Below are positions 8,644 to 61,947 of a stretch of 64,000 nucleotides of DNA, piece after piece. The stretch is taken from assembly GCA_026390695.1 (NCBI GenBank), contig JAPLFL010000048.1:339-64338 (forward strand), read 5' to 3'. Both the position numbers and the translations under genes were made by a program. The first letter of the stretch is position 1. Every line of letters starts with the position of its first letter. Under the pieces are notes generated by a model, which had not been told where the DNA came from, did not search any database, and worked only from the letters and a program-made list of their open reading frames with translations. Source of the stretch: Candidatus Kapaibacterium sp. GTDB lineage: Bacteria > Bacteroidota > Ignavibacteria > Kapaibacteriales > UBA2268.

Positions 8644-8801
8644 CCAGGGGAGATTTAAGAAAGCTCTTTATTAGCATATAATATTTCAATTACATTAAAT
8701 CTTAATGAAATATTTGTGTTAAACATCAAATGTTTGTAAAAAAAAGGTGAACCAAAGTCCACCTCTTATATGAAAAATCTTGATTTTTAGTTAGTAAATT
8801 A

Positions 8802-10115: not shown

Positions 10116-10150
10116 TTTTTTTCTCCGAAAAATATATACGTAAAATTTAA

Positions 10151-11290: not shown

Positions 11291-11341
11291 GATTTATCCT
11301 AATTTATACTAATTAACAAAATATTTAAGGTTATTAAATTT

Positions 11342-17175: not shown

Positions 17176-18450
17176 TTAAGTTTTAAGTTTCTTTTTCTTG
17201 GCAGCAGGGAAGAGGATATTATTAAGTATGAGCCTGTATCCTGGAGAATTTTTGTGTAAACTCAAATCTGTGGGAGGATCTCCGATATTATGACGATAAT
17301 CTTCAGGATCGTGGCCGCCATACCAAGTATAAGTACCACGTCCGACATTTCCGTTAATATATTTCACTTCATCGGAACCTTCTTTTATTCCAAGGATTGT
17401 GACGTTCTTTTTGATATATTCTTTATGGAAAGCAGTTGTTTGCCCCATAAATCCATGTACTATGTTCACATGGCATTGGGTCAGCATTGATGGCACTGGA
17501 TCGTATTTAGCAGAAAAATCAAATAAAGTGAAATAATCTAAATCAGGATTTGGAATTTTCAGTGGGTCTATATCTATTGAAGATATTTCATATTCATAAG
17601 GATCATAAACAATGCGAAAATTTTCAAAGGCATTTGTCTTTGAAAAATCAAGTTTGCTCTGAGCCTGCATATCCAGTGGATCTCCGTCAAAGGGTTCAGA
17701 ACAAATATCAACTCCTTCAGCCGCTAAAGCCACATCATAAGAATCAGTAGCACTGCACATAGCAAACATGAATCCGCCGTTAGCAATAAATTCCTGAATT
17801 TTCTTAACTACTGACAATTTCATTTGGGATACTTTTGCAAAGCCAAGTTTCTTTGCCATACCTTCATTCAAAGCCACTTGCTGAATATACCAAGGTACAT
17901 TATGGTATGCTGCCCAAAATTTTCCGAACTGACCAGTAAAATCCTCGTGATGTAGATGGATCCAATCATATTTTTCAAGTTTACCCATTACAACATCTTC
18001 ATCCCAAATAATATCATGCTCAACTTCTGCATATTCAAGAGCAAGTCTGACCGCATCATCCCATGGGCGTGCTCCGGGTGGTGCATAAACACATATTTTC
18101 GGAGCTTTTTCAAGCCGGACTACATCCATGTTATTGTTTTCGCTTTGGACTTCAGCATATATCTTTCCAGTAGATCCACCATCGAGGTTTTCAAAGAATA
18201 TTCCTCTTAATCGAAGCTCCGTTGCTATTTTATCACTATAATCAGTCATAAATGAACCGCCGCGATAATTCAGCAGCCAATCCACTTCTTGTCCTTGTTT
18301 AAGCACCCAGTATGTCAGCCCATAAGCCTTCAGATGGTTCGTTTGGGCTAAATCCATAGGAATAAATATTTTTTGTGCCTGTGAAGTTTCGAGCAAAATA
18401 AACAATGAACAAAGAAATATCAATATATATTTCATAAAAGAGTTTTGCAT
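17176..18450 (-). CDS. Hypothetical secreted protein (about 425 aa)
   Basis: Long ORF with signal peptide MKYILIFLCSLFILLETSQAQ; start moved to an internal Met to avoid overlapping divergent maf; no recognised catalytic motif. Confidence 0.5.
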   Translation of the reverse strand: MQNSFMKYILIFLCSLFILLETSQAQKIFIPMDLAQTNHLKAYGLTYWVLKQGQEVDWLLNYRGGSFMTDYSDKIATELRLRGIFFENLDGGSTGKIYAEVQSENNNMDVVRLEKAPKICVYAPPGARPWDDAVRLALEYAEVEHDIIWDEDVVMGKLEKYDWIHLHHEDFTGQFGKFWAAYHNVPWYIQQVALNEGMAKKLGFAKVSQMKLSVVKKIQEFIANGGFMFAMCSATDSYDVALAAEGVDICSEPFDGDPLDMQAQSKLDFSKTNAFENFRIVYDPYEYEISSIDIDPLKIPNPDLDYFTLFDFSAKYDPVPSMLTQCHVNIVHGFMGQTTAFHKEYIKKNVTILGIKEGSDEVKYINGNVGRGTYTWYGGHDPEDYRHNIGDPPTDLSLHKNSPGYRLILNNILFPAAKKKKLKT

Positions 18451-18536
18451 TTTATGGAAATTAAATTTTGTAATTTTAATTTCAAGTAAACGTCGGAAAG
18501 CCGGTTTTATTGCAATTTTCAACTTATAAAATCATT

Positions 18537-29349: not shown

Positions 29350-31582
29350 ATGAATATGGCTAAGGCAAAACCTGAAACTTCAAAAAAAATAATCAATAAA
29401 AAATCTGAACCTAAGAATCAGCCATCAAAGCTTTCTCCTGCAATTAAAGCTAACCCAGTTAGTAATGCAAAAAAATCTTTAGATTCTAAAATACAGCCAA
29501 AATCAAAGATAATGGCTAATCCTGTAAAAGCAGCTCCTGGCAAGGCAGAAGTCAAACCCGCTCCTAAGAAAATTGAAGCACCAAAGCCAAAAGCTATAAC
29601 CAAAGCAGCACCAGCAAAACCTGCTCCTAAAAAAATTGAACTACCAAAAGCAAAAGTCGTTACCAAAGCAGCACCAGCAAAACCCGCACCTAAGAAAATA
29701 GAAGCACCAAAGCCAAAAGCCGTTACCAAAGCAGCACCCGCAAAACCTGCTCCTAAAAAAATAGAAGCACCAAAAGCAAAAGCTGTAATCAAAGCAGCAC
29801 CAGCAAAACCTGCTCCTAAGAAAATAGAAGCACTAAAAGCAAAAGCTGTAACCAAAGCCGCACCAGCAAAACCTGCTCCTAAAAAAATAGAAGCACCAAA
29901 GTCAAAAGCTGTAATCAAAGCAGTACCAGCAAAACCTGCTCCTAAAAAAATAGAAGCACCAAAGTCAAAAGCTGTAATCAAAGCCGCACCAGCAAAACCT
30001 GCTCCTAAAAAAATAGAAGCACCAAAGTCAAAAGCTGTAATCAAAGCCGCACCAGCAAAACCTGCTTCCTAAGAAAATTGAAGCACCAAAAGCAAAAGTC
30101 GTTACCAAAGCCGCACCAGCAAAACCTGCTCCTAAGAAAATTGAAGCACCAAAAGCAAAAGTCGTTACCAAAGCGGCTCCTGCAAAACCTGCACCTAAGA
30201 AAATTGAAGCACCAAAAGCAAAAGTCCTTACTAAAGCCGCACCAGCAAAACCTGCACCTAAGAAAATTGAAATCTCAACCGCGAAGTCAGCTCCTACACC
30301 CGCAAATGGGAAAACAGCTCCAGTGGCAAAAGATAAGCCATCTGAAAAAAATATTATCACCAATTCAAGCAGTAAAGCAGTTGCTAAACCCGTTGCGACA
30401 ACAACCGTCACAAAAAAAGTAGAAGCTACAAAACCGGTTTTAAAGAAAGAAGATCCTGTTAAATCAATTAAAAAAGAAGTTGAAGAAACTATTGTTAAAA
30501 GTAGTTCAAAGCAGGCATCATCAAAATTACCCATAGAAGAAAAGAAAAGTAACGCAAACTCGGTCGATAAAAAGAAAGATGTAATTGAAAATAATAAATC
30601 AAAAAGCAAAGAAAATTTAAAAGATAAATCTGTAAAAGCTGCTGCCATTGAGATGATAGCGGAAAGCCCCGCTGTTAATAACAATGAGATTATGGAAATT
30701 AAAGAAAAAAAATTGAATGTTGTTATTGAAGATTCAAAATTTGAAGAAAATTCTGATGATGGTTTTTATGAAGGGAAATCAAGAAATTATGCTAAAGGAC
30801 TTGCTAACTTGAATAAAGCAAAGTCATTTTTAACAAATTCAGAAGAGTTACCACATGATCTTGAAGCTGAAATTGATGTTGATGTAATTGATCATGATCT
30901 TCACCCCGGATTAAAAGAGGATAAAATTATCCCCGGAATGCCTGTACATGATGTTCTTGATGATTATATCGGAGATTATGATATTGACGAGGTTGAAGTA
31001 GTTAAGAAAAAAAGAGGCAGAAAGCCAAAGCAAACTGAACACCATAAACCGAGAGTAATTTTCCAAACTAAAGAAATTAAATCTCCAATTATTAAAAAAG
31101 AAGTTATCTCTGAAGAATCCAGTTTAAGTAAAAAAATGATTGCTCCTCCGGTTAGGCCAATTGTAAGTATCAGATATTCGGATAAAGAACTTGCAGAATT
31201 TAAAATTATTATCACCGAATCCCGTAAAGAGGCTCTTGATGAACTTAGAATGCTTAAGGAAAGACTCGAAGACTTAACGAATTTTGATTTTGCCGAAGAA
31301 AGCATGATTTATTCTATGCACATGGCAGAACAAGGTTCAGAAGCACTTGAACAAGAGAAAACTTATGCTCATATTCAAAGAATAAATGAGTATTTGAAAA
31401 AATTAGACGAAGCCTTGCAAAGAATAACGGAAAAAACTTATGGTATATGCCGCGTCTGTGGTTGTTTGATAGCTAAAGAAAGGCTTATAGCCGTTCCTAT
31501 CACTACATTATCGGCTTCTTATAAAATACATCAGAAATGCCCCGAAGATGGTATAGATATGATTGAACCTGTCAGCAGATAA
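29350..31582 (+). CDS. DksA/TraR-family C4-zinc-finger protein with a very long N-terminal extension of tandem histone-H1-like repeats (KAAPAKPAPKKIEAPKPKAVT, eleven or more 63-bp units) plus an AT-hook (KKKRGRKPK); interrupted by a single-base +1 frameshift at about 30066-30067
   Basis: Frame 1 (29350..30072) stops at TAA inside a repeat that reads cctgctTcctaag where every other unit reads cctgctcctaag. The repeats continue without a stop in the +1 frame into 30323..31582, whose C-terminus (coiled coil plus YGICRVCGCLIAKERLIAVPITT...C) resembles a DksA/TraR zinc finger. Confidence 0.55.
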
Positions 31583-32280: not shown

Positions 32281-33358
32281 AACCCAAGATATTGATAAAA
32301 GTAATTATCCCGAATACATTGAAAAAATATTCGAATTCAAGATACCTGCAGGACAACAACCTGAGCGTATTGATAAATATCTGACGCGTTCAGTCGTAAA
32401 TGCAACCCGCAATCGGGTTCAAAAAGCCATAGATGAAGATCAAGTTACAATTAATGGTAAAGTCGCAAAGCCGAGTAAAAAAATTTTACCAAATGATCTT
32501 ATTATATGTAAGATCCTGAAATCTCCGCCCATAAGCCTTATTCCAGAAAATATTCCGCTTAATATAATTTATGAAGATGAATCCATCATTGTAATAAACA
32601 AACAAGCTGGCTTGGTAACGCATCCGGCTCCCGGGAACCGCTATGGCACTCTCGTAAATGCCGTTTTATATCATATTGGGCTGCGTGAGGCTATAAATCT
32701 TGAATTTGACGAAGATGACGAGCCTGACGAGAGCTTGATATTCTCATCAGATGAGATTAGGCCGGGAATCGTACACCGTCTTGATAAAGATACATCAGGA
32801 TTACTTGTTGTATCGAAAAATCCCGTAGCTCATGCAAAACTATCCAAACAGTTTGCAGACAGAACAGTAAAGAAAAAGTATTATGCCTTGGTTTGGGGCA
32901 ATCCAAAGCAAAGCAAAGGCAGGATAATTGCAGATATCGGTCGTTCCAGCAGAGACCGAAAGCTATTTACTGTTCTTAAAAAGGGAGGAAAATTTGCAGA
33001 TACAGAATATAAAGTCATCGAATCGTTTGAATACTTTTCTCTGTTAGAAATTTTGTTGCATACCGGAAGAACACATCAGATACGTGTCCATCTGAGCCAT
33101 GAATCAATGCCCATTGTTGGAGACACTTTTTACGGCGGGAATTCTTTGGTTTATGGCGGCAATAATCCCCAATTTCGAATAATCGGCGAAAAAGTTCTAA
33201 AGCTTGCTGCAAGGCAGATGCTACACGCCAAAACTTTAAGTTTGCATCATCCCGTAAGTGGTCAGGAACTTACTTTTGATTCAAATATTCCTGAAGATAT
33301 GCAGATAATTATCGATTATCTCAGGATCATATCATCGACCCAAAACTCAGACCTTTGA
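32234..33358 (+). CDS. rluD: RluA-family 23S rRNA pseudouridine synthase (RluD-like, with S4 domain)
   Basis: HRLDKDTSGLLVVSKN catalytic motif and N-terminal S4-like region. The track ORF starts at 32210; either start overlaps the end of lspA. Confidence 0.85.
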   Translation: MKSKKTLLVPQELSIKTQDIDKSNYPEYIEKIFEFKIPAGQQPERIDKYLTRSVVNATRNRVQKAIDEDQVTINGKVAKPSKKILPNDLIICKILKSPPISLIPENIPLNIIYEDESIIVINKQAGLVTHPAPGNRYGTLVNAVLYHIGLREAINLEFDEDDEPDESLIFSSDEIRPGIVHRLDKDTSGLLVVSKNPVAHAKLSKQFADRTVKKKYYALVWGNPKQSKGRIIADIGRSSRDRKLFTVLKKGGKFADTEYKVIESFEYFSLLEILLHTGRTHQIRVHLSHESMPIVGDTFYGGNSLVYGGNNPQFRIIGEKVLKLAARQMLHAKTLSLHHPVSGQELTFDSNIPEDMQIIIDYLRIISSTQNSDL

Positions 33359-33927
33359 TTATCAATAAAAGCAGAATCTTTATTCTGGCTGAGTAGCAGA
33401 AATATTCTGGCAGAATCGGCAATGGTCGAGTTTGAACTAATCGGAACAGAAATTTTTGTAAAATTATTAATCTGAATCGGGGCAAACCAAAGACCTGTGC
33501 CTACAGAATCGTTGCTCTGATATAAAGTGACTCTGATAATCATAGTATCATTTTGTAGTAATTTCCCCTTAACATAACAATCCAAATACTGTGGCAGAGA
33601 ATTAATCGGGAACTTAACAGTTGCATAAGTACCTTTGTTGCAATCGAAGGTAAATTTTGCGGAATATTTGCCATGATAAGCTATTGTATCTTGCTGAATA
33701 ATATAACATGCACACATTCTCATGCAAGGGGGACAGCTATTGGACTCCCACTTTTGAAGAAACATCAATTGATCCCATTCCTCGAAATCTCCATTTGGGA
33801 TATAAATTGATTGTGTAGCCGGATTATTAACTGTGTTTTTACAAGCCGTTGCAAAGGTAATAATTAAATAAGTCACTGCCACTGCGATTGATAAGAGTAG
33901 AGCGTATCTTAAATTTACAATTTTCAT
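33316..33927 (-). CDS. Hypothetical lipoprotein or secreted protein
   Basis: 203 aa; signal peptide with a lipobox-like FATAC; Cys-rich; no known motif. Confidence 0.45.
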   Translation of the reverse strand: MKIVNLRYALLLSIAVAVTYLIITFATACKNTVNNPATQSIYIPNGDFEEWDQLMFLQKWESNSCPPCMRMCACYIIQQDTIAYHGKYSAKFTFDCNKGTYATVKFPINSLPQYLDCYVKGKLLQNDTMIIRVTLYQSNDSVGTGLWFAPIQINNFTKISVPISSNSTIADSARIFLLLSQNKDSAFIDNQRSEFWVDDMILR

Positions 33928-34109: not shown

Positions 34110-36395
34110 TTATTTAATAACTGTGAATTTTGCGCTCTGAGACTTACCTGCAATGTTGATTCTGATAATAAATAAACCATTTGAAAGTGTACTTACATCA
34201 ATTGGTAAATAATTATTGCCAGAAATTGCATTGAAATTACCAGATAATACTGCTAATCCTAAAGCATCATAAATATTGAACTGAGCATCAGCATCTGTTC
34301 CTGTGAAATTAACATTAAGCGATGATGTTGCAGGTTGAGGATAGAAACTCATTCCAAGTGTATTTAAATTATTATCATTGACCGTTAATGTTTCGGATTT
34401 AAGGTTTACATTTAGGGATACGTTTGCTTTCATATCATAATCGGTCTCTATAGCTTGCGAAACAGCGTCATATCCGACTTTGTCGGTAATAAGAGTATAT
34501 TTCCCTGCCAGTAATTCTTCTATCGAAAAATTGCCGTTTGCATCAGAAAAATTATAATCTACTATTTCATTATTTTCGTTCATCAAATAAACTAATGCAC
34601 CTTGGACAGGAGTTATTCCCTGTGGAATATTACCCTTTTTCAGAGTAATTCCACTTTGTGTAGAAATATTTCCACCAACAAAAGCAACGCCCTTCCAGCT
34701 TTTACTCGTTCTGTGGGTTAAAGTATAAACGATCTGTGGCATTGCATCATTAACTGTAATTCTCGTAGCATCGCGCCACTTCTGGGTTACTAAGTCATTA
34801 GCTTTGTAATAACCGGGTACATATTGACGTTGTATCGGCAATGACATTACTACATAATCTCCATAAGGAAGATTTGCAAATCTGAAATTACCTTTATCAT
34901 CTGTTTGTATTGTTTGTACAAAGTTATATTTCACATTATTTGTGTTAGGAGCTGGTTTGACAAGGATTGCCATCAGTTTTGACTGGAGTGCAACACCGGA
35001 ATCGGAAATTACATTGCCGGTAAAACCGTTTGCAAGGGTATTTACAGCAGCTTTCAAGTAAAAATCTATTCCCTGAAGATCCATTTCGGGAACGATAAGA
35101 TCGGCTTCTAACGGAGATCCGACACCATCATAGTAGCATGGCTGAAGGTCAGTATTTGTTTTTTGTGCGGATGCAAATCCAACATAAATCAGATTATCCG
35201 GTAAGGCTATTGAATATTTACCTAATTGATCAGTTGCGCAGGTATAAGTCCGAACATTCGGATCTGTGGTTGATTTATTATTAATCATGTCATAAGGTGT
35301 GAACTGAACCATTGCTCCCATAACAGGTGAAGAATCCTTTGCTCGTGCGACAAGGCCGGAAACAGTATGAGTGGTAGGAGGAATAAGCGGTGTGAGTGTA
35401 GTTTTCAGCATCACTGTATCATTGCACTTAATAGTAATCTGTTTTGCAAGTTTAAAATCTCCGGTATTATCATAGTAAACTGCCTGAAAGTTGGGAGCTT
35501 CCAATTTCAGGATATATACACCTTCTAAGACCATTGCATCAAAAATACCGTTAATAATTTTTGCTTGTACAGGCTGACCGCTATTAAGCATTGGGACGAT
35601 TGATACAATCCCGCCATTGATAGGAGTATTCGGATCTTTCTGGTTATAAACATTACCATGAATCCATGCGCAAGGCATTCTCTGGTTACTGTTACCAACA
35701 ATGACTGGGATCTGAATATCATTACGGAGTGTAGAATCACAGCCTTTTAATGAAACCGAACCGTTTAACATGAACTTTCCGTTTTGTGAAGCAGACATAG
35801 TTACAACGCCTTTATTAGGATCGAAAGTCATTTTGCCTGGCATATCTGTTTTGAAATTATAAACTATCGGGCAATTGGTATTGCTTTCAGCCGGTAATTG
35901 AATAGTAAAAGTTTGACCAAGTGCTATATTGATTTCCGGGGGGAATTTTACAAAGCGAACATAATATTGAATAGGAGCCTCGTACTTTACTTCAATCGTA
36001 AAAAATTGTGAGGGATCACTCTCAATATATGGCTGGAAATTAAACCATGCAGCTGTCATGTAGAAAGAATAGACTCCTACTTTCAGATTTTGGAAACTAT
36101 AAGAATAATCAGTCTGACCGGGCATCATTTTTAACATTTGAGCCTGCTTGAAATTTTTAGGATCCCTTGTATCGCCATTTGCCATATAAATTATGAAAAC
36201 TGTTGATTTAGACGAATCCCATTGATAAGACCACTTATTGACAACAATATCCGTTGGTGGCATTGTTTTTTGAGTCACAACCGTTACGTTATATGGAGAC
36301 GGTGGTTGGGGCTTCTGAGCAAACATTGAGCTTGTGAACAAAACTAAAAGTATAGCTAATGACAAGACTTTCAGCGGATTTTTAAACGATTTCAT
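34110..36395 (-). CDS. Large secreted protein with a T9SS C-terminal sorting domain (carboxypeptidase-regulatory-like / Ig-like repeats)
   Basis: 761 aa; signal peptide MKSFKNPLKVLSLAILLVLFTSSMFAQ; C-terminal ...GLFIIRINIAGKSQSAKFTVIK is typical of a T9SS sorting domain. Confidence 0.7.
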   Translation of the reverse strand: MKSFKNPLKVLSLAILLVLFTSSMFAQKPQPPSPYNVTVVTQKTMPPTDIVVNKWSYQWDSSKSTVFIIYMANGDTRDPKNFKQAQMLKMMPGQTDYSYSFQNLKVGVYSFYMTAAWFNFQPYIESDPSQFFTIEVKYEAPIQYYVRFVKFPPEINIALGQTFTIQLPAESNTNCPIVYNFKTDMPGKMTFDPNKGVVTMSASQNGKFMLNGSVSLKGCDSTLRNDIQIPVIVGNSNQRMPCAWIHGNVYNQKDPNTPINGGIVSIVPMLNSGQPVQAKIINGIFDAMVLEGVYILKLEAPNFQAVYYDNTGDFKLAKQITIKCNDTVMLKTTLTPLIPPTTHTVSGLVARAKDSSPVMGAMVQFTPYDMINNKSTTDPNVRTYTCATDQLGKYSIALPDNLIYVGFASAQKTNTDLQPCYYDGVGSPLEADLIVPEMDLQGIDFYLKAAVNTLANGFTGNVISDSGVALQSKLMAILVKPAPNTNNVKYNFVQTIQTDDKGNFRFANLPYGDYVVMSLPIQRQYVPGYYKANDLVTQKWRDATRITVNDAMPQIVYTLTHRTSKSWKGVAFVGGNISTQSGITLKKGNIPQGITPVQGALVYLMNENNEIVDYNFSDANGNFSIEELLAGKYTLITDKVGYDAVSQAIETDYDMKANVSLNVNLKSETLTVNDNNLNTLGMSFYPQPATSSLNVNFTGTDADAQFNIYDALGLAVLSGNFNAISGNNYLPIDVSTLSNGLFIIRINIAGKSQSAKFTVIK

Positions 36396-52474: not shown

Positions 52475-52791
52475 CGGGGTTAATTTTTATTGGAATTAGT
52501 CATTTTTACGCCATTAAAAGCGGATCTTGCTGTCAGTAACTCAAATTGACCGAACCTTATTTTATTAAGATAATGGTAAAAATTCCTGATTATTTTTTCA
52601 AACTCGTTTTATTTTTTAACTTTTTATTCTCAACAAAATATCAAATAAGCCTCAAATAAATTTTGATTATTTCATATTTATTCTTTATTTTGCAAAACTG
52701 TAACATTAACCTATTTTTTTTGTTAATATATAGTTATAGTGTTCGATTTTTGAAATTTGAAATTATAGTAGTAAAATATAAAGGTAAAAAA

Positions 52792-55700
52792 ATGAAATAT
52801 TTCAACAACATTGGAAAAGTGGCTTTAGTAGCGCTTATAATAGGGATTATACAAACGTTCTCAGTTTGCTTTGCCGGAAGTTTTTCTGTCACCGGAGTTG
52901 ATGCGACAAAATTTCCAGTTATGCACGCAAGTTTTGTTGCTCTGGATGATAACGGAAAATCTTTCCCTAATATCTCTGCTTCTGATTTTACAATAAAAGA
53001 TTTCGGATCGGTAATTTCTCCGGCTTCAGTCAGTATTTCATGTATTGATACTCTTATTAATCCTGAGTTGAGTGTAATTCTTGTAAATGATCAGAGTACA
53101 TCAATGACAGATAAATTACCACCAGATAACGATACTCGTTGGGATTGGGTAAGATATGCCGATTCTACTTTTGTTTATACATTGAAATTTCAGGGAGATA
53201 CTAAGGTAGCGGTAACAACCTTTAGCTTTTGGTCTTGGATAAGATGTAAATTTTCAAATAATCCGAGAGAAATTCTTGATACAATTATAAATGTGAAGGT
53301 TTATGGCGGTACAGACTATAATCCTGCTTTTTTCACTGCTCCACAAACAGGATTTGGCTGTATTGATTATATGAAAACCAGAGACCCTAAAATCAGGAGA
53401 GTTGTCATCTTCTTGACCGATGGAGTGCCTTTGAAACCTGTGAATGCTGATTCTATAATTTTTGAATGTAATAATGCAAATATTCAGGTTTATGGTATTT
53501 GTGTGAATGCTACGGCAGTCCAGCCGGATATTGCAAAAATTTGTGAAAAAACCGGAGGCAAATCATTTGCTGTTGCTACCAAAAAGGCTCTGGCAGATAT
53601 TTATGCGATGATTGCAGTTGAAGCACAATCCAGAAAAATGTGTGATATATCGTGGATCTCTCCTTACGGATGTGACGATCAGAGCAGGTTTAGCAGGACT
53701 GTTGATCTTACTTTTAAGCCATTAAATGAAATTGAACACCGACCTTATACGGCTCCTATAGGGAGTGTGGCAGGTTTTGATCTGTCAACACAGATACTTG
53801 CTTTCGGCGATCCTAACCCACTGACATCATCGGATGTGACTTTGGTAATAAAACCAAAAGGGACTAAAGCTTTAATTACAGGAGGGCAATTTAAGCCAAT
53901 AAATACTTTCTTTTCAATTGTTGATTGGGGTGGGACTGCTCCACCTTTTACTCTTGATACAAATCAATCAAGAACAATAACTTTGCGATTTACACAAGAT
54001 ATCAATAGAAATTTCCAAAGGGCAATTTTCGAGTTAACAGGAACTCCATGTATGCCTGCTATGCCGGCTGTTGGCGGATTATCGCAGGTTCTTATTGTTA
54101 ATCCTGCCGGTGGTGAAATAAAATCAAGTTGTGATACGGTAAGGATAATTTGGGCCGGAATCGGCGCAGCTACTCCGATTAATCTATATTATTCCACTGA
54201 TAACGGGCTTACATTCCCTAATCTTATTGTATCGAACGTTACAGGTTTTGTTTATAATTGGTTCCCCGTACCAAGTGGTAATATCAAAATAAAAGCAGTA
54301 GTGGCTCCTATTTCCAAATATATGTGGGCAAACTCTTTTGGCTGTATCCCTGATGAACATGTAACCGGATTGGCAATTTCACAAGATAATTCATACTTAT
54401 ATATGTGCGGATCATTCACGGATTCGATTTGTATTGGTTCAACTACACTGAGAGCCATTAAAGGAACTGACGGGTTTATTGCAAAATTTGACATTTTCGG
54501 CAATTTCCTATGGGCTAATTCATTCGGAAGCACCGGTCTGGATTCTGCTGCTGCAATATGTGTGGATGCTGCCGGTTATGCTTATATAACCGGGACAGTA
54601 CAGAATGGATATACTTTTGGAGGAAGTCCGGATAATTCATGGATAAACGGACGAAGATATATGTTTGTTGCAAGATATGGACCTAATGGAGGTATGCCAA
54701 TATACAACGTAACCGGAGCAACAGGTATTTATACATTAGCTGACGTATGGGGCACGGATATTTATATTGATGCCAAGGGATATTTACAAGCTGAAGGAAA
54801 ATATACCGGAGGAGCATTCATTGCATTTACTAAAACTACCTTAGCCGCTCCTACTCCTATTACCAATACTAAAAAATTCCAAACTGAATTCACTGCCGTA
54901 AATTTATCAGCAATAGTATCAAACCCAACTGGATTTACCAAGCCATATAACTCGAATACTGCTCTTGATGCGAACGGAAATCGTTTTGATGCTTTTTCAT
55001 ATACAGGAACGACTTCTTTCGGAGGTACTTTTAATTTCACATCGAAGGGACTAAGTGATATTATTCTGCGTAAGTACGGCGGTCAACCCGGCTCAGCAGA
55101 TACTTTGAAAAATGCAGTATCTGTTCAGTCGCCTCAGCTCTCATTCACAGTTCCTTCTGTTGACCTCGGAACTCAAACAATGGGATATCCAAATGGAATA
55201 AGCCGAACAGGTATTTTAAAGAATATCGGAAATTTAACTTTGCAGATAAGTTCAAGTACTTTTTCAGGAATAAATGCTAACGAATTTTCTCTTGCTTCAA
55301 GTTTAAATGGTGTAGTTCTGGCTCCCAACGAAACACATGATGTTGAATTTATATTTACTCCTGGGGATATCGGCATACGGTCAGCAGTTTTTCAGGTTAA
55401 TTCAATTTGCGGAAGCCCTGTTTTTCTGAATGTTAGCGGAACCGGTATTTGTTCAGGGGATCCTATGGATTCGTATAATTTCGGTGATTGTAATGCCGGA
55501 ATCGAACAGAAGCGAACTCTGTTCTGTGCCTTGCATAATACCAATAATATGGCGATTACTATCAAACCGACATTGGATGGTGCCCAGGCAGTTGATTTCA
55601 GACTTTATCAAGCTGATTGTACAACTCCATTGACACAGCTTACACTTCTTCCGGATAGTTGCGCATTGATTTGTGTCGGGTTTACACCTGCCGCCTCGAA

Positions 55701-57492
55701 TGCTGAGTCGGCAACTATTAATTATCATTTACCAAGCGGTTGCACTAATCAATATACTAATCTTTATGGTAAAGGTGTTGTAACGGATTTAGCTATTTCA
55801 CCAATTGATTGGAAAGGTCGCAGAATTAATTGTTCTTTCGATTCTGTATTAATTGTTCAGAATAATGGAAAAGGAGCCGCAGATATAACTATAACAGCAA
55901 TTGATTTTGAAAATGGCGCAATACCTGAATTTGCTATGACAGTACCAAGCTTACCCGTAATTGTTGCCGCAAATGGTGGTCAACTGTCCCTTCCGGTCAA
56001 GTTTATTCCAAGTGCTGAAACAAATTTCAAAAAGAATATTACTTTTAAAATAAAAGAAGACCCATCAAAAATTTATACAGCTACTCTTAGCGGTTTTGGA
56101 ATTATCCCGAAAATCACATCTTATTTTGATTGTCCAAAACCTGTTTTGCCCGGAGATACATCTACAGCCTGGCTGACAATTAAAGATACAAGTGCAAGCG
56201 AAGACCTGACAATTTATACTGTCGATTTCAAAGGTTTGAATCTTGACTTTAAATGGCCCGGCGGAGCTGTTCCAAGCAATATTACTGTGAAAAAATTAGA
56301 TAGTATTAAAATTCCTATTATCTTTGCTCCTCCGCTTCCAAACGGATTCGGACAACGTGGAACAAAAATAATGATCATTCATGATGCTATTAGTTGCGAT
56401 TCAAAAGGAATGAGAAAAGATACCGTTTCTTATGATATTATTTGCGATGGATTGACTCTTCAGGCAGACTCAGTTACTTTTGGGTCTGTTTATCAATGTG
56501 ATAATTTATCTAAAAACCTGAGCCTTCATAATCAGAGCTTCCAAACTAAAGTATTTATAAACCCTCCTGTATTAACTGGCTCGGATGCTTCGGCTTTTAA
56601 AGTTAATATTCCCGCAGGTTATTCTATAGACGGTGGTAATAGCAGTAAAAATAATGATTTAACTGTTATATTTACTCCATCTGAACCAAGGAAGTATCAT
56701 GCAACTTTACAAATTTCTAATTCATTTAATCAGAAAGTATCAAGTGAACTTAATGGATCAGGAGAAATCTTTAAACTATCGACTCCTGTTCCTAAAAGAA
56801 TCATCCAGCAAAAACCCGGATATAAATTTAACTTGCCTGTTTTCGGGGATGTTTCATCCTTAACAAAGGGTGCTGTTACTGATTTTACAATGAATTTAAC
56901 TTATAATCCGAATGTGCTTACTTATGTTGATGGATCTATAAAATCTGCTGTTTCTCTTCCATCAGTAACATGGACGACAAAAAAAATAACTAACGGGCTT
57001 ACCGTGACAGGGAACGGAAGTATTCCAGCACCATATAATTCCAATAATTACACAATGGCTAACGAATTGTTCGATCTTGATTTCCTTGTATATCTATCGG
57101 ATGAAACCACAACACAGGTACATTTTGCTCCTGTGTTGAAAAATTGTACAAGTTATGATACATTGGCAAGTATAGTTAGTGTAATCGGAGTATGCAACGC
57201 AAAGGGAAGATTGGTTGAGATCAGCACAACCGAATATTATTTTAATGAAATATCACCAAGTCCTTCAAATGACAAAATTTCTCTTGCTTATGGGATTGGA
57301 TTGGATGCTGCAACATATATCTCAATTTATAACTCAATAGGCGAAGAAGTAAAAGTTTTGGTAAATTCTGAGATGAAAACCGGTGAATACTCTCAAAATG
57401 TGAATCTCAATGAATTGGCGGCAGGAATTTATTTCATAAGATTGCAATCAGGGCCGTTTACCGAAACTAAGAGATTGATAGTGAATAAATAA
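52792..57492 (+). CDS. Very large secreted protein (about 1566 aa): N-terminal von Willebrand factor A domain, beta-propeller (SBBP-like) repeats, multiple Ig-like/choice-of-anchor domains, and a T9SS C-terminal sorting domain
   Basis: Signal peptide MKYFNNIGKVALVALIIGI; vWA MIDAS motif VNDQSTSMTD...GGTDY...IFLTDG; C-terminal ...AAGIYFIRLQSGPFTETKRLIVNK. The track ORF starts at 52663; Met at 52792 is preferred. Confidence 0.75.
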   Translation: MKYFNNIGKVALVALIIGIIQTFSVCFAGSFSVTGVDATKFPVMHASFVALDDNGKSFPNISASDFTIKDFGSVISPASVSISCIDTLINPELSVILVNDQSTSMTDKLPPDNDTRWDWVRYADSTFVYTLKFQGDTKVAVTTFSFWSWIRCKFSNNPREILDTIINVKVYGGTDYNPAFFTAPQTGFGCIDYMKTRDPKIRRVVIFLTDGVPLKPVNADSIIFECNNANIQVYGICVNATAVQPDIAKICEKTGGKSFAVATKKALADIYAMIAVEAQSRKMCDISWISPYGCDDQSRFSRTVDLTFKPLNEIEHRPYTAPIGSVAGFDLSTQILAFGDPNPLTSSDVTLVIKPKGTKALITGGQFKPINTFFSIVDWGGTAPPFTLDTNQSRTITLRFTQDINRNFQRAIFELTGTPCMPAMPAVGGLSQVLIVNPAGGEIKSSCDTVRIIWAGIGAATPINLYYSTDNGLTFPNLIVSNVTGFVYNWFPVPSGNIKIKAVVAPISKYMWANSFGCIPDEHVTGLAISQDNSYLYMCGSFTDSICIGSTTLRAIKGTDGFIAKFDIFGNFLWANSFGSTGLDSAAAICVDAAGYAYITGTVQNGYTFGGSPDNSWINGRRYMFVARYGPNGGMPIYNVTGATGIYTLADVWGTDIYIDAKGYLQAEGKYTGGAFIAFTKTTLAAPTPITNTKKFQTEFTAVNLSAIVSNPTGFTKPYNSNTALDANGNRFDAFSYTGTTSFGGTFNFTSKGLSDIILRKYGGQPGSADTLKNAVSVQSPQLSFTVPSVDLGTQTMGYPNGISRTGILKNIGNLTLQISSSTFSGINANEFSLASSLNGVVLAPNETHDVEFIFTPGDIGIRSAVFQVNSICGSPVFLNVSGTGICSGDPMDSYNFGDCNAGIEQKRTLFCALHNTNNMAITIKPTLDGAQAVDFRLYQADCTTPLTQLTLLPDSCALICVGFTPAASNAESATINYHLPSGCTNQYTNLYGKGVVTDLAISPIDWKGRRINCSFDSVLIVQNNGKGAADITITAIDFENGAIPEFAMTVPSLPVIVAANGGQLSLPVKFIPSAETNFKKNITFKIKEDPSKIYTATLSGFGIIPKITSYFDCPKPVLPGDTSTAWLTIKDTSASEDLTIYTVDFKGLNLDFKWPGGAVPSNITVKKLDSIKIPIIFAPPLPNGFGQRGTKIMIIHDAISCDSKGMRKDTVSYDIICDGLTLQADSVTFGSVYQCDNLSKNLSLHNQSFQTKVFINPPVLTGSDASAFKVNIPAGYSIDGGNSSKNNDLTVIFTPSEPRKYHATLQISNSFNQKVSSELNGSGEIFKLSTPVPKRIIQQKPGYKFNLPVFGDVSSLTKGAVTDFTMNLTYNPNVLTYVDGSIKSAVSLPSVTWTTKKITNGLTVTGNGSIPAPYNSNNYTMANELFDLDFLVYLSDETTTQVHFAPVLKNCTSYDTLASIVSVIGVCNAKGRLVEISTTEYYFNEISPSPSNDKISLAYGIGLDAATYISIYNSIGEEVKVLVNSEMKTGEYSQNVNLNELAAGIYFIRLQSGPFTETKRLIVNK

Positions 57493-57517: not shown

Positions 57518-58027
57518 ATGAGCGAATCGACTGAACTATTAGGGAAAGTACAAACACAAGGAACATTTTCAAGTGATCTCCTTCAACTTGTTAGTTTTAA
57601 TCTTGGCGATGAAGAATTTGGGATTGATATTCTCAGAGTACAGGAGATAATCAGAATGGTGGACATTACCCGTGTACCCAATGCACCATCCTTTGTTATT
57701 GGAGTGATCAATTTAAGGGGGAAAGTAATTCCGGTAATTGACCTGAATCTGCGAATGGCACTAAACACATCCGAACTGAGCAACAACAGCCGCATTATAG
57801 TAATTGAATTTGAAGGCAAGGTTGTCGGCTTTTTAGTTGATAAAGTAAATGAAGTCCTCAGGATTGATAAAAGCATTACCGAGCCGCCACCACAGATGGT
57901 TGGATCGGTTAACTCCGATTTTATTACTGGAATCGGGAAATTAGAGAACAGATTACTTATTTTGTTAGATTTGGAGAAATTATTGAATAAAGTCACCGAT
58001 CCGGAGATAACCGGATCGGTGGAATGA
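57518..58027 (+). CDS. cheW: CheW-like chemotaxis coupling protein (stand-alone)
   Basis: 169 aa; near-canonical CheW: FNLGDEEFGIDILRVQEIIRMVDITRVPNAPSFVIGVINLRGKVIPVIDL...RLLILLDLEKLL. Confidence 0.85.
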   Translation: MSESTELLGKVQTQGTFSSDLLQLVSFNLGDEEFGIDILRVQEIIRMVDITRVPNAPSFVIGVINLRGKVIPVIDLNLRMALNTSELSNNSRIIVIEFEGKVVGFLVDKVNEVLRIDKSITEPPPQMVGSVNSDFITGIGKLENRLLILLDLEKLLNKVTDPEITGSVE

Positions 58028-59652
58028 AAAGCATAATGAATAATCTTTATTTTGAAGATTGTTTGGATGTTCTAAAGAAATTACACAGTGAATTTCCAAA
58101 GGGATTTATTGATTTAATATATATTGATCCTCCTTTTAATTCAAAAAGGAACTATAATATTTTATTTGAGAGTATTGATTTAAAAAATACTAAAGCTCAG
58201 AAAGAAGCCTTCAGTGACACTTGGAGTAATGTTTCTTATCAAGATACAATAAGTGAAATACGCGAAATTGATCTAAATTTATATAAATATTTGTCAGTTT
58301 TAGATGATATTAAAATATCTATATCTGCCATAAGCTATTTATCAACTATGGCAATTAGAATCTGGTATATGCACAAGGTTTTAAAAGATACCGGTAGCTT
58401 TTATTTACATTGTGATCCTAATATGAGCCATTATTTAAAAATTATATGTGATTTAATTTTTGGATCTGATAATTTCAAATCGGAAATTACATGGCAAAGA
58501 ACCAATGCACATAATGATTCCAGAAATTATGCGCACGTAAACGATATAATTTTATATTATACAAAAGCAAAAAAAAGTTTTTTTTCAACTCAATTTATTG
58601 AATATTCCGAAAACTACATTAACAAATATTATAAGCATGTTGAAAACAGTAGAAAATTTCTCGACCGCGACCTTACAGCAGATGGACTAACTGGCGGTGG
58701 TTATAAATATGAATGGAAGGGTGTTACAAAACTTTGGAGATGTCCTGTTTCAACTATGGAGAGATACGAAAAGGAAAACAGAATCTATTATACAAACAAA
58801 AGAACTCCAAGATTAAAGCAATTTTTAGATGATATGCCCGGTGTGCCTGTCACAAATAATTGGACAGATATCCCTCCAATTAATTCTCAAGCGCAGGAAC
58901 GATTAGGTTATCCAACACAAAAGCCGCTTGAACTTTTAGAGAGAATAATACAAGCGTCATCTAATGAAGGAGATTTGGTTGCAGATTTTTTCTGTGGCTG
59001 TGGCACTACTTTAGCTGCTGCACAAAAATTAAAAAGAAATTGGCTTGGAGTCGATATTTCACATCTTGCAATTCAATTGATACTTAAAAGATTGACTGAT
59101 CCTTACCCGGAAGAGAAACGAAAAGATATTCTTAAAAATATTGATATTTCCGGGCTTCCGAAGGATATTGCTTCTGCTCACGAATTGGCACAAAACACAG
59201 ATAACCGTAGAGTTAAATTTCAAGATTGGGTTATAGAAGTTTTAATAGGTGGAGTAGCAAGTCCAAAAAAGAGTGCCGATGGTGGTTGTGACGGTTATTT
59301 TACTTTTCCGAAAACAATAAATGGCAAGCAAAAAGGAACTGGGATCATTGAAGTCAAGAGCGGAAATATCACAATTAACATGGTACGTTCGTTTATGTCT
59401 TCGGTTGATGCTTTTAAAGCTGATATTGGTGTATTTGTATGCTTTGAGGACAATATTACAGATGGGATGAGAAGAGAAGCGAAAGCAAAAGGACAAATTG
59501 AAAATTCAAAAGTTTATAAAATACAAATATTAAGTATTGACGAACTTTTGGATGGTATAAAGCCCAAAACACCTTTGATGGCAGAGTTAAATAATTTTGA
59601 ACATTCGACTGATAAATTAAAAACCGAGCAAAAGAACCAGGAAATGCTTTAG
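58024..59652 (+). CDS. Beta-class (N6A/N4C) DNA methyltransferase fused to a C-terminal Mrr-like PD-(D/E)xK restriction-endonuclease domain
   Basis: Motif IV IDLIYIDPPFNS lies N-terminal to motif I DLVADFFCGCGTTLAAAQ (beta-class order). C-terminal ~170 aa ADGGCDGYFTF...IIEVKSG...VRSFMSSVDAFKADIGVFVCFEDNITD resemble the Mrr catalytic domain. An ATGA start/stop overlap with cheW is possible; an alternative start at 58036 gives the canonical MNNLYFEDCLDVL N-terminus. Confidence 0.7.
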   Translation: MKSIMNNLYFEDCLDVLKKLHSEFPKGFIDLIYIDPPFNSKRNYNILFESIDLKNTKAQKEAFSDTWSNVSYQDTISEIREIDLNLYKYLSVLDDIKISISAISYLSTMAIRIWYMHKVLKDTGSFYLHCDPNMSHYLKIICDLIFGSDNFKSEITWQRTNAHNDSRNYAHVNDIILYYTKAKKSFFSTQFIEYSENYINKYYKHVENSRKFLDRDLTADGLTGGGYKYEWKGVTKLWRCPVSTMERYEKENRIYYTNKRTPRLKQFLDDMPGVPVTNNWTDIPPINSQAQERLGYPTQKPLELLERIIQASSNEGDLVADFFCGCGTTLAAAQKLKRNWLGVDISHLAIQLILKRLTDPYPEEKRKDILKNIDISGLPKDIASAHELAQNTDNRRVKFQDWVIEVLIGGVASPKKSADGGCDGYFTFPKTINGKQKGTGIIEVKSGNITINMVRSFMSSVDAFKADIGVFVCFEDNITDGMRREAKAKGQIENSKVYKIQILSIDELLDGIKPKTPLMAELNNFEHSTDKLKTEQKNQEML

Positions 59653-59699: not shown

Positions 59700-61694
59700 T
59701 CACTCCAGCTTCAAAACCTGCTTCTCGCAACTTCCATTGCCAGTTTTCACTGTCAAGGTATAAACTCCAGCACTAAGCTGCCCAGGCAGACTAATTTTTA
59801 TATTATTCTCTCCAGATTCTAAATAATAATAATCTGAAAATACAATTTCACCCATTATAGAATATATACGAAAAGTCGCTGCTGTACTTGTTGTTGAATT
59901 AATTTTTGCCGTAAAAGTATCTTCAAATGGTGTGGGACTTATTGATTCGATTGTTAGAGATTTAATCATATCTTGATCATCGACGGAATTAATATTCATT
60001 TTAATAAAATTTTTCTCAATCTTCTGGACACAGGAATCCGGGAAAAATACTTTTACTGTTAATTTCCCTGCTCCTGTACTATCCCAGTGAACTCTCACTC
60101 TGCTATTGGAGATATAGAGATTAATTTTACCACCGCTCAAATTCCACTCGGTTAACCTATTTGATGGATTTTTAATTTCATAATATTGCTCCCAGCCCAT
60201 GCAAGCGGTATCGGAGCCACTTATGGATGGTTCAACGAAATATGGTGAAAATTGCTGCTGAATAGTTGTTGAATCAGAACAGGAATTATTACCCGATTTA
60301 ACAATTAATTTCAAGGTGGCATTGTTTCGATCTGTCCATATTACTTTTATAATTTGCGAGGAATCCGAACCTATTATTGTTCCGTTTTCGGCAATCCAAT
60401 TCTGATAACTGAAATTCACAGCATTAGAATACGATTTCACTGTATCCATATAGCATGAGTAGCTATTTCCGGTGATTATCGGCTTGATGCCGGTATTAAA
60501 CATTTTAACATCAAAATTTGATGAATATCTGCAATTGGTCGAATCGGGATCAATTAATAAAGATAAATTTCCTGTTTTTCCTGCTTCCCAAATTACCTGA
60601 ACATCCCTGTCAGTGCTGCTACCTGTGATATTTCCGTTGCTTGCAGTCCATTTGAATACTTTGCTATAAGTGCCCTGATATGTATAATTAATCTGTTCGC
60701 TGCCACAGTAAACCCGCGCCCCGCTTATTATTGAATCAGTGAAGCCGAGAGGCTGACTAATGTATTGAAAGTTTTGAGTCAAAGAATGTTTCTTCCAGCT
60801 AAGGCTGACATCACCGCCCGTACAATCACTCAACCATGAGAAAGTACAATAATTGCCGCTATTAGGTGCTAATGAATCCAAAATGGTTTCGCACTGCATT
60901 GAGTCAGGGGTTTCATAATATTTTCCTCCGGTTTTTTGTGCCATATCTTTCAATTCCTGAGTTGCAGGTATTCCTATTGCTATTGTATTAATAATACCAT
61001 TCAGATTAAGGCAATCAAATATAACTTTATTAGGATCGAAAATACCTCCTTCGTCAGGAAATCCATCTGTCATAAAGAATATTATTGGCTTGTATTTTGC
61101 CCGGTTTGCAACATTTAAAGCACCTGTAGCTCTTCCCCATTTATCTTTACTCAATGGAGGGACGCCGTAAAAAGCTTCATGATATTTTGTAGAACCATCG
61201 CCTTTTAAATAGTAGATGGAATCTAAAACCACTCTGACACTATCATACTTTTTTGGCCCACTAATATTTATAAAATCACATTTTAAAGATGCAATAGAAG
61301 AAAAAGTAATTATACAAATTTCTGAATTTTCCGGAACTCGCCCTACAATAATATTCAACATTTTTTTCATATACATTAACCGAGATATTCCGTTTGTAAT
61401 TAAACTGCCTTGCATGGAAGTAGAAACATCACAAACAAAAATAAAAGAATTATAACTGGTGTAGCAATCAATATTCTGAATGCTTCGATTAAGTCCACCG
61501 TCTGTCAGCAGAAATTCATTTGTATCTGATAATGAAAACTGATGATTTACTAAATCTTTAATATTCAGATAAGCCGATATAATCGGAGATTTACTCGCAT
61601 CGGTACCAATTACTTTTAATGCTTGAGCTTGCAAAATGTTTGAAAAAACGAGTCCTGAAGCTATTATACAAACTGCAACAATAATATTTTTCAT
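59700..61694 (-). CDS. Secreted von Willebrand factor A domain protein with a T9SS C-terminal sorting domain
   Basis: Signal peptide MKNIIVAVCIIASGLVFSNILQAQA; MIDAS CDVSTSMQG; C-terminal ...SAGVYTLTVKTGNGSCEKQVLKLE. The track ORF starts at 61718. Confidence 0.75.
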   Translation of the reverse strand: MKNIIVAVCIIASGLVFSNILQAQALKVIGTDASKSPIISAYLNIKDLVNHQFSLSDTNEFLLTDGGLNRSIQNIDCYTSYNSFIFVCDVSTSMQGSLITNGISRLMYMKKMLNIIVGRVPENSEICIITFSSIASLKCDFINISGPKKYDSVRVVLDSIYYLKGDGSTKYHEAFYGVPPLSKDKWGRATGALNVANRAKYKPIIFFMTDGFPDEGGIFDPNKVIFDCLNLNGIINTIAIGIPATQELKDMAQKTGGKYYETPDSMQCETILDSLAPNSGNYCTFSWLSDCTGGDVSLSWKKHSLTQNFQYISQPLGFTDSIISGARVYCGSEQINYTYQGTYSKVFKWTASNGNITGSSTDRDVQVIWEAGKTGNLSLLIDPDSTNCRYSSNFDVKMFNTGIKPIITGNSYSCYMDTVKSYSNAVNFSYQNWIAENGTIIGSDSSQIIKVIWTDRNNATLKLIVKSGNNSCSDSTTIQQQFSPYFVEPSISGSDTACMGWEQYYEIKNPSNRLTEWNLSGGKINLYISNSRVRVHWDSTGAGKLTVKVFFPDSCVQKIEKNFIKMNINSVDDQDMIKSLTIESISPTPFEDTFTAKINSTTSTAATFRIYSIMGEIVFSDYYYLESGENNIKISLPGQLSAGVYTLTVKTGNGSCEKQVLKLE

Positions 61695-61947
61695 TTTAAC
61701 TCTGTATATGATAAACAATTTTATTCAAATTTAGTCTCTTCTCTTTTTGGGGGAAGGTTAAATCAATAATCAAATATAATAAAAATTTTCAGTGATTGCA
61801 AACTTTTATTAACAAACAATAAAAATAACCTATTCTCAGAAAAAATCAATTTAAATTAATCTCAATTTTCTTTCGTCTTTAGGCACTTATTCTTGTAAAA
61901 ATTCATTAATTTTATGAGATTTGTTTATTTGTAATTTGGAGTCTTTA

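Follow-up and report, generated by a model that had tools for sequence, protein, structure and literature searches.

A solitary cheW gene beside a stand-alone DNA methyltransferase with a predicted nuclease-like domain: an adjacency that is probably accidental

In a stretch of 64,000 nucleotides of Candidatus Kapaibacterium sp. DNA, here called the window, a gene for the coupling protein CheW is followed directly by a gene for a DNA methyltransferase that carries a nuclease-like domain, and the question raised by this locus is whether the two genes form a functional pair or are neighbors by chance. An earlier note on this DNA had left open chance insertion and functional pairing alike; the evidence assembled here supports chance juxtaposition and does not support the pairing. 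The features on which the argument rests are the following.

52663 to 57492, plus strand: vWA/Ig-like-repeat surface protein of 1609 aa with a T9SS C-terminal sorting domain (Pfam VWA, HYDIN/Cep192-type Ig, Por_Secre_tail)
57518 to 58027, plus strand: cheW, solitary, encoding a single-domain CheW coupling protein of 169 aa (Pfam, NCBIfam, nearest homologues)
57993 to 58022, no strand: GC-rich inverted repeat, perfect over 11 bp plus one G-U pair, with a 6-nt loop
58036 to 59652, plus strand: stand-alone DNA methyltransferase, 538 aa from the family-consistent start (longest ORF, from 58024, 542 aa)
58036 to 59130, plus strand: beta-class methyltransferase module, with motif IV DPPF near the N-terminus, a putative target-recognition domain and then motif I DFFCGCGTT
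59131 to 59652, plus strand: C-terminal PD-(D/E)xK (restriction-endonuclease-fold) domain, with conserved E401, D419 and E439-x-K441 (538-aa numbering)
59700 to 61718, minus strand: vWA and T9SS-tail protein of 672 aa, convergent (ORF list, Pfam)

The two flanking genes, of 1609 and 672 aa, are convergent and encode vWA/T9SS surface proteins, just as they had been described. The larger is read in the same direction as cheW, and 25 nt separate its stop codon from the cheW start; the stop codon of the smaller lies 47 nt from that of the methyltransferase gene, with no significant structure in this 47-nt spacer. BLASTP aligns the two proteins across the vWA region at 26% identity (E 3e-15); they are distant paralogues.

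The identification of a canonical 169-aa CheW holds: the CheW domain (PF01584, E 1.2e-42) occupies residues 23–158 and profile positions 1–136 of 138, so that it spans nearly the whole protein, with no second domain detected by Pfam. The product also matches the NCBIfam model CheW PRK10612 (E 2.7e-37), and its nearest homologues are annotated CheW proteins of Kapabacteria. Its isolation, claimed for 5 kb on either side, extends across the whole 64-kb window, where Pfam searches of all large ORFs found no cheA, cheY, cheR/cheB or MCP gene and tblastn with the MCP signalling domain, CheY and CheW gave no further match. Nor do che or MCP genes adjoin cheW at the closest orthologous loci, where the orthologues (65–71% identity) are likewise solitary, with no che genes within 8–10 kb; as a positive control, an MCP or second CheW domain was found at 34 of 70 more distant loci. 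Judged from these sequences, the orphan state of cheW is ancestral. The CheW protein would most likely have its usual role, linking CheA with chemoreceptors whose genes lie elsewhere in the genome.

The surroundings of cheW vary. Its upstream context is different in every genome examined, while a gene for a 408-aa FtsX/MacB-type (FtsX/MacB_PCD) permease lies tightly 3′ of it in five different Kapabacteria-type genomes. There cheW and the LolC/E-like permease form a translationally coupled gene pair whose flanks are otherwise completely different, and in the present genome the slot that the permease takes after cheW is held by the methyltransferase. We know of no description of this cheW-permease pair. 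A proposed synteny of Lon with cheW was set aside: Lon lies near a cheW match in two Deferribacteres loci, and because the 'cheW' match at the one examined (L036) sits inside a 623-aa ORF, the proximity is taken as coincidence.

How closely the two genes are joined depends on where the methyltransferase starts. The stop/start overlap reported previously does exist in the letters: gtggaATGAaaagc is present, with an ATG at 58024–58026 and the cheW TGA at 58025–58027. However, nearly all of the 60 homologues among the matches listed begin M-x-x-L-Y/F-F-G-D-C-L, and the counterpart of this family N-terminus is MNNLYFEDCL, encoded from the ATG at 58036, 8 nt past the cheW stop. The match places the start probably at 58036 and leaves the overlap probably unused; going by these N-termini, 58024 is probably not a real start, and the ATGA overlap probably arises because the longest ORF was chosen.

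The assignment of the N-terminal module is strong (Pfam N6_N4_Mtase, PF01555, E 4.3e-44, 151.5 bits against a cutoff of 26.7). The motifs occur in circularly permuted order, with DPPF at residues 31–34 ahead of DFFCGCGTT at 317–325 (538-aa numbering), and both are fully or almost fully conserved in an alignment of 101 sequences, whose invariant columns include D31, P32, F34, N35 and S36 and the run D317, F318, F319, C320, G321, C322, G323 and T324. Conservation is low between motifs IV and I, at about residues 180–270, a stretch taken as the putative target-recognition domain. The protein matches the PADLOC models MTase_II and MTase_III, and among PDB entries it is closest in sequence to Type III Mod subunits, MboIIA and RsrI (E 3.7e-16 to 3e-12); the AF2 model of the protein has a pLDDT of 82.9. 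A DPPF motif in place of SPPY/F presumably points to an N6-adenine target, so that this specificity is most likely here.

The C-terminal domain calls for a more guarded name. What had been described as a 542-aa fusion of a DNA methyltransferase and an Mrr nuclease is indeed a combination of an N6_N4_Mtase module with a PD-(D/E)xK fold, but Mrr is too specific: Mrr_cat (PF04471, 20.1 bits against a cutoff of 21) and NA-iREase1 (25.1 against 27) both fall below the Pfam gathering threshold, and Pfam finds no Mrr N-terminal (Mrr_N, winged-helix) domain, the N-terminal 365 residues being methyltransferase. The predicted catalytic residues are well kept: E401 and D419 are invariant and E439 and K441 at least 90% conserved among the 101 sequences, and none of the four varies in an alignment of the domain from 27 sequences. 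The AF2 domain model (pLDDT 82.9) has an alpha-beta-beta-alpha-beta core topology, and the leading Foldseek matches in the PDB, all weak (best E 2.8e-3), are mostly PD-(D/E)xK folds, among them the Rpb5 N-terminal domain, MspJI, Can2, EcoT38I and BamHI. By sequence and model, then, the domain is predicted to be restriction-endonuclease-like, with E...D...ExK residues, and is not demonstrably Mrr.

Stand-alone beta-class enzymes related to this methyltransferase number in the thousands and make up a very large family that is patchily distributed and also borne by phages and plasmids. Full-length homologues (95–99% coverage, 36–39% identity) occur in Streptomyces phages, Marinitoga phage MPV1 and plasmids, and ORF clustering over 31 methyltransferase loci revealed no shared neighbor. 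Three unrelated contexts, none of them with cheW, surround the homologues from Kapabacteria (56% identity), Ignavibacteria (61%) and a 4.49-Mb chromosome, on which cheW maps near 0.43 Mb and the methyltransferase near 1.26 Mb. The fusion of this methyltransferase type with a PD-(D/E)xK domain is very abundant and apparently uncharacterised, and a literature search for a fusion of N6_N4_Mtase with Mrr returned nothing relevant by title.

Against this background the pairing of the two genes can be examined from both sides. Conservation of the gene neighborhood, which a functional pair would lead one to look for, is absent: tblastn finds a methyltransferase homologue in 0 of 83 cheW-bearing loci, taken with flanks of up to 10 kb, and CheW in 0 of 31 methyltransferase-bearing loci. 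Since the pair occurs together in no related sequence examined, the two genes appear to have become neighbors by accident. Traces of how it arose are sparse. No meaningful direct or inverted repeats surround the methyltransferase gene and no integrase or transposase was found; no tRNA lies near the pair, the window's only two being at 47.6–47.9 kb. An empty site was sought in a close relative via cheW, Lon and the flanking proteins and none was found; the nearest Lon is 69–70% identical and the region downstream of it is not syntenic. With no close relative in the databases, neither an empty site nor a datable insertion is demonstrable.

Base composition separates the two genes in an unexpected direction. 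A foreign origin of the methyltransferase on compositional grounds was considered and dropped, since the gene as a whole is no outlier (GC3 0.234, typical codon use, whole-gene composition P about 0.08–0.10); unusual AT-richness is confined to its first 200 codons (GC 0.253, P 0.005). The outlier is instead cheW, whose GC3 is 0.385 against 0.273 ± 0.043 in length-matched segments (P 0.003), whose synonymous-codon score falls below all 5000 sampled segments, and which has the most deviant codon usage among 39 ORFs in the window. As its orthologues are not codon-usage outliers within their own loci, this suggests that the copy in this genome may itself have arrived relatively recently.

Taken together, these observations make it very probable that genome rearrangement happened to bring together two unrelated genes, an orphan cheW of the kind usual in this lineage and a mobile methyltransferase that stands alone. 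The earlier note had named as marks of coincidence the occurrence of each gene without the other and compositional signs of a recent methyltransferase insertion; the former is found and the latter, in GC and codon usage, is not, and because most of what it named is thus present the reading of chance juxtaposition is supported. The motility and chemotaxis genes of Kapabacteria are dispersed and a solitary cheW is typical of the lineage; members of the methyltransferase family land at differing chromosomal sites in different genomes. In the present genome the convergent surface-protein genes enclose cheW and the methyltransferase, the latter placed directly after the former. Independently of chemotaxis, the methyltransferase would methylate chromosomal DNA, either as an orphan enzyme or as a restriction-modification enzyme of the single-chain kind. 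The genes lie 8 nt apart on the same strand, and a lineage-specific co-option is formally conceivable.

An accidental adjacency could nonetheless have consequences for expression. Same-strand genes 8 nt apart are likely to be co-transcribed, and as there is no promoter-sized gap before the methyltransferase its expression probably comes from transcripts that read through from cheW or the 1609-aa gene. The methyltransferase may thus have come to depend on transcription of the cheW operon, its expression tracking the regulation of motility and chemotaxis, with the 12-bp hairpin formed by the inverted repeat acting as an attenuator or RNA-stability element; we regard this as a real possibility that falls somewhat short of an even chance. 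In its favor, the 8-nt gap is too small for a separate promoter, no terminator-like site is found on the plus strand between the 1609-aa gene, cheW and the methyltransferase, and the hairpin is strong and immediately upstream of the methyltransferase start. It lies within the last 11 codons of cheW, past the region encoding the CheW domain, and ends 14 nt before 58036; the RNA fold of 57970–58070 has an energy of –33.4 kcal/mol (z –6.1), and the inverted repeat is unique in the window, with 0 expected by chance. Possibly the hairpin would modulate read-through into the methyltransferase. On the other side, the dependence is one that we infer, and a promoter within the cheW coding sequence is possible; the terminator scan flags the hairpin on the minus strand only, the plus strand having no downstream U-tract. 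The hairpin corresponds to no known RNA element, a scan of the window at Rfam gathering thresholds returning the two tRNAs only.

A different proposal shifts attention from the adjacency to the separate genes: either this cheW clade functions in connection with the membrane permease, or the methyltransferase family is an uncharacterised class of single-chain restriction-modification enzymes in which a beta-class, Type III-Mod-like methyltransferase is joined to a catalytically intact C-terminal PD-(D/E)xK nuclease. We consider this unlikely as matters stand, and neither version would make the adjacency of cheW and the methyltransferase functional. Much less probable is the arrival of both genes as a single mobile unit between the convergent surface-protein genes, for which one can cite the status of cheW as the strongest codon-usage outlier among 39 ORFs, with orthologues unremarkable in their own loci, and the variation of its upstream context across every genome examined. 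Yet the deviations in GC3 are opposite (cheW 0.385, methyltransferase 0.234), which argues for separate origins, the pair is together nowhere else among the loci searched, and integrase, transposase, tRNA and flanking direct repeats are all absent nearby. Least probable of all, and barely to be entertained, is a translationally coupled operon in which CheW scaffolds or regulates the methyltransferase-nuclease, for example to connect chemosensory signalling to DNA modification or restriction: the shared strand, the 8-nt gap (a 4-nt overlap if the ATG at 58024 were used) and the lack of a recognisable promoter or plus-strand terminator between the genes speak for it, and against it stand the counts of 0/83 and 0/31, a methyltransferase family without any conserved neighbor that also works in phage genomes, a recurrent downstream partner of the cheW clade that is a permease and not a methyltransferase, the strong difference between the two genes in GC3 and codon use, and the absence of any relevant title on a link between CheW and a methyltransferase or restriction-modification system among the top 10 of 29 full-text literature matches.

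The chance reading removes a tempting but false lead from chemosensory signalling to DNA modification, and serves as a reminder that, in a compact genome, a functional pair is not to be inferred just from close spacing and a seeming overlap of stop and start. Two by-products are perhaps worth a separate look, namely the conserved cheW-permease pair of Kapabacteria and the family, borne by phages among others, that combines a methyltransferase with a PD-(D/E)xK domain.

Comparison with known enzymes places the methyltransferase close to several systems. With Type III Mod subunits (EcoP15I Mod, 4zcf; H. pylori Mod, 6k0w) and the Type II enzymes M.RsrI and M.MboIIA it shares the succession of motif IV (DPPF), a variable region and motif I (FxGxG), whereas those enzymes lack the C-terminal PD-(D/E)xK domain that it carries. 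Unlike in Type II and Type III restriction-modification systems, no Res or cognate endonuclease gene adjoins the methyltransferase here or in the 31 homologous loci, its immediate neighbors in the window being cheW and the gene for the vWA protein. The single-chain Type IIG/IIC enzymes BpuSI, MmeI and Eco57I resemble it in having a PD-(D/E)xK fold and a methyltransferase on one polypeptide encoded by a stand-alone gene, the nuclease being a predicted one in our protein. In Type IIG enzymes the nuclease is N-terminal and the methyltransferase gamma-class (PMC3185434); here the order is reversed, with the nuclease-like domain C-terminal and a beta-class methyltransferase. A genuine Eco57I/MmeI-like enzyme is encoded elsewhere in the same window, at 4181–7201.

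The nuclease-like domain taken by itself resembles Mrr/MspJI-type (Type IV) nuclease domains and NA-iREase1 in its fold and its E...D...ExK pattern, and differs in that it has no winged-helix or SRA-like domain and is fused to a methyltransferase instead of a modification reader. The same two-domain architecture is found in phage orphan methyltransferases (Streptomyces phages, Marinitoga phage MPV1), annotated simply as 'DNA methyltransferase', although the copy described here is chromosomal and has no phage genes around it. For cheW, the closest parallel lies in the solitary genes of genomes with dispersed chemotaxis functions (Kapabacteria/Ignavibacteriota, for example 'Ca. Thermonerobacter thiotrophicus'), which likewise encode a single-domain CheW of ~160–170 aa away from the cheA, cheY and MCP genes; in five related genomes the gene that tightly follows encodes the 408-aa permease, whereas here it encodes the methyltransferase.

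The two genes lie on the plus strand between two convergent genes for vWA/T9SS proteins, as the earlier note described; these approach to within 25 and 47 nt.

The cheW and methyltransferase genes with their flanks
52663-57492, plus strand: vWA/Ig-repeat/T9SS-tail protein, 1609 aa; stop 25 nt 5' of cheW
57518-58027, plus strand: cheW ORF, 169 aa; Pfam CheW at residues 23-158, E 1.2e-42; NCBIfam CheW
58024-59652, plus strand: DNA methyltransferase, longest ORF 542 aa; N6_N4_Mtase, E 4.3e-44
59700-61718, minus strand: vWA/T9SS-tail protein, 672 aa; convergent, stop 47 nt from the methyltransferase stop

The Pfam CheW domain is covered end to end, in keeping with the original CheW call, and the last ~150 residues of the methyltransferase match NA-iREase1 and Mrr_cat, both slightly below the Pfam threshold. 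Records identical to both products come from a Candidatus Kapabacteria MAG (MCX6153635.1, CheW; MCX6153636.1, DNA methyltransferase), and both are ordinary members of families already known. The flanking vWA proteins are distant paralogues (26% identity across the vWA region); T9SS-tail (Por_Secre_tail) surface proteins number three in the window, the third at 34110-36395 on the minus strand. The absence of che genes, first claimed for 5 kb on either side, extends over the entire 64 kb: Pfam scans of the large ORFs revealed no che, MCP or flagellar genes, and tblastn with MCP signalling domain, CheY and CheW queries matched only this one cheW.

Chance juxtaposition, which the earlier note had offered as its alternative, is very probably the best explanation for the adjacency, given that the pairing is unconserved and the methyltransferase family stand-alone and mobile. 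A CheW scan of the genome collection gave 80 loci with flanks up to 10 kb, a methyltransferase scan of metagenomes gave 28, and context look-ups added more of the former and three of the latter; by tblastn, 83 loci have cheW, 31 have the methyltransferase, and none has both. The 4.49-Mb chromosome OW818654.1 has homologues of both, ~0.8 Mb apart. Clustering of all ORFs at the 31 methyltransferase loci yielded no common neighbour, the sole multi-locus clusters being antisense shadow ORFs within the methyltransferase gene itself. The functional CheW-methyltransferase pairing that the close spacing had suggested is thus not supported by the neighbourhood comparison proposed to check it, and nothing was found to support an interaction between the two proteins. 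A very recent, lineage-specific co-option may have occurred, but no evidence points to it; the searched collections contain no close relative of this organism (70% identity at most for Lon) and the nearest relative has no synteny downstream of Lon, so no empty site is shown and the juxtaposition is undated.

The cheW orthologues have a different recurrent partner. In five distinct Kapabacteria-type genomes cheW is followed by a gene for a 408-aa MacB_PCD/FtsX (LolC/E-like) permease.

The cheW-permease pairs, by locus
L115 (L115/116): 10001-11730
L119 (L119/120): 10001-11727
L008/L117/L118: 10001-11731
L123: 8001-9732
L009: 10001-11687

At the annotated loci the two genes overlap by up to 4 nt or lie up to 4 nt apart, the permeases share 69-78% mutual identity, and the flanking genes differ in every annotated context. 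To our knowledge the conserved pair has not been described as a unit, and the window has no permease orthologue. Downstream of other cheW orthologues lie kaiC-kaiB, clpP-clpX, toxin-antitoxin genes or series of small unknown ORFs. At one locus (L005, 10612-14585) kaiC-kaiB and a PAS histidine kinase follow, then clpP-clpX, with a 1531-aa ORF lacking a Pfam match on the 5' side; at another (L006, 1420-3293) clpP-clpX follows directly and a TamB-domain ORF lies 5'. At L121 four consecutive ORFs of 101-106 aa without Pfam match lie 3' of cheW (8692-9986), and a phage-type integrase lies ~6 kb upstream; the small-ORF run possibly represents an insertion into this slot behind cheW. In the annotated contexts of seven of the nearest homologues (65-71% identity), no cheA, cheY, cheR, cheB or MCP gene occurs within 8-10 kb, while the same detection found such genes (MCP or a second CheW domain) at 34 of 70 more distant cheW loci. 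Published Kapabacteria-group MAGs have flagellar and che genes, the flagellar genes not being gathered in one cluster (PMC7509429, PMC6338057), so that a cheW on its own is usual in the lineage. The CheW studied here would act in chemoreceptor arrays whose genes lie elsewhere in the genome.

The string ATGA at 58024-58027, which includes the cheW stop and a candidate ATG, is present as reported, but the overlapping ATG is disfavoured as the start: nearly all of 60 listed homologue N-termini read M-(N/K)-x-L-Y/F-F-G-D-C-L-D-V-L-K, a pattern corresponding to the second ATG at 58036 (MNNLYFEDCL). On this match the methyltransferase is most likely a 538-aa protein beginning 8 nt past the cheW stop, and the 4-nt overlap probably reflects nothing more than the choice of the longest ORF. 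Expression would be through read-through, because an 8-nt gap is too small for a promoter. Between the CheW-domain coding region and this ATG, inside the final 11 cheW codons, lies a perfect 11-bp GC-rich inverted repeat with a 6-nt loop (57993-58022; 12 pairs including one G-U). It encodes CheW's non-conserved tail VTDPEITGSVE, occurs once in the window and is much stabler than shuffled sequence (z -6.1). There is no U-tract 3' of it on the plus strand, and a terminator scan flagged it on the minus strand only. Orthologous cheW genes without a tightly coupled downstream gene (L003, L005, L121) have terminator-like hairpins after the stop. The hairpin may be a relic (bidirectional) terminator, an attenuator, or an insertion or recombination boundary.

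Composition does not mark the methyltransferase as a recent insertion, a sign the earlier note had looked to. The gene as a whole is not compositionally foreign (GC 0.321, GC3 0.234, typical synonymous-codon score; P ~0.08-0.10 in comparison with segments of matching length from the other window genes). An unusual AT-richness is seen in the first 200 codons (GC 0.253, P 0.005). The strongest codon-usage outlier among 39 window ORFs is cheW, with GC3 0.385 versus 0.273 +/- 0.043 (P 0.003) and a synonymous-codon score below all 5000 sampled length-matched segments; within their own loci its orthologues do not stand out. One possibility is that cheW was recently replaced or relocated here. The opposite directions of deviation argue against a shared origin and do not account for the local copy's own past.

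The surrounding window is a housekeeping chromosomal region by Pfam scans of all large ORFs (GH92, SAM synthetase, AdoHcy hydrolase, RecA, RecX, IleRS, LspA, NusB, PBP1, IspG, AspRS, Lon), with a small accessory/defence islet at 2.6-7.2 kb (2665-7201).

The accessory islet
2665-3164, minus strand: DUF4160/DUF2442 pair
3516-3987, plus strand: BrnT toxin and CopG antitoxin
4181-7201, minus strand: single-chain Type IIG restriction-modification enzyme, 1006 aa; Eco57I/MmeI-like methyltransferase, TaqI_C specificity domain, HSDR_N-like N-terminus

The Type IIG gene has low GC (0.298) and is a second restriction-modification gene of the window, independent of the one adjoining cheW. A 1.6-kb stretch without ORFs of at least 120 aa separates it from the AdoHcy hydrolase gene and contains a 34-nt tandem repeat (7858-7931; 2.2 copies, 97% identity). 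A 240-aa ORF at 29350-30072 (plus strand) has no Pfam match and extreme GC3 (0.162, z -3.1) although its GC is 0.397; long antisense ORFs overlap it on the minus strand (29418-30044, 30028-30684). Two further minus-strand ORFs, 17176-18522 (448 aa) and 33316-33927 (203 aa), lack any Pfam match with E of 0.01 or below.

The methyltransferase family is very large, with at least 8000 candidates; almost all of the best 120 matches extend over the full length, with 50-63% identity, and the named sources include Kapabacteria, Ignavibacteria, Bacteroidota, Chitinophagaceae and Spirochaetia. Homologues of full length were also found in phages (28 records, Streptomyces phages and Marinitoga phage MPV1) and on plasmids (eight records), which fits a self-contained mobile gene. 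The phage homologues H1-H12 (e.g. MZ648039.1 34411-35949; OZ018341.1 39510-40967) are 36-39% identical across 95-99% of their length and keep both the beta-class methyltransferase and the C-terminal, nuclease-like PD-(D/E)xK domain. In a 101-member alignment an invariant DPPFNS (motif IV) close to the N-terminus precedes DFFCGCGT (motif I, residues 317-324), and the poorly conserved interval is taken to be a putative target-recognition region; this order is the beta-class arrangement. In the PDB the closest sequences are Type III Mod subunits (6k0w, EcoP15I Mod), M.MboIIA and M.RsrI. The DPPF motif favours N6-adenine specificity, which is predicted here. In the C-terminal ~170 residues E401 and D419 are invariant and the E439-x-K441 pair is at least 90% conserved, all four being invariant in a 27-sequence domain alignment. 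AlphaFold models are confident (mean pLDDT 82.9, whether for the complete protein or for the domain alone) and give an alpha-beta-beta-alpha-beta core, and the top Foldseek hits to PDB structures, all weak (best E 2.8e-3), are mostly PD-(D/E)xK folds, among them the Rpb5 N-terminal domain, MspJI, Can2, EcoT38I and BamHI. Together these residues, core and matches argue for a restriction-endonuclease-like domain with an intact-looking active site, and the protein could serve as an orphan methyltransferase or a single-chain restriction-modification enzyme. The proposed methyltransferase-Mrr fusion therefore stands as a methyltransferase with a nuclease-like fold but loses the Mrr label, since the domain falls below the Mrr_cat threshold and the Mrr N-terminal domain is missing.
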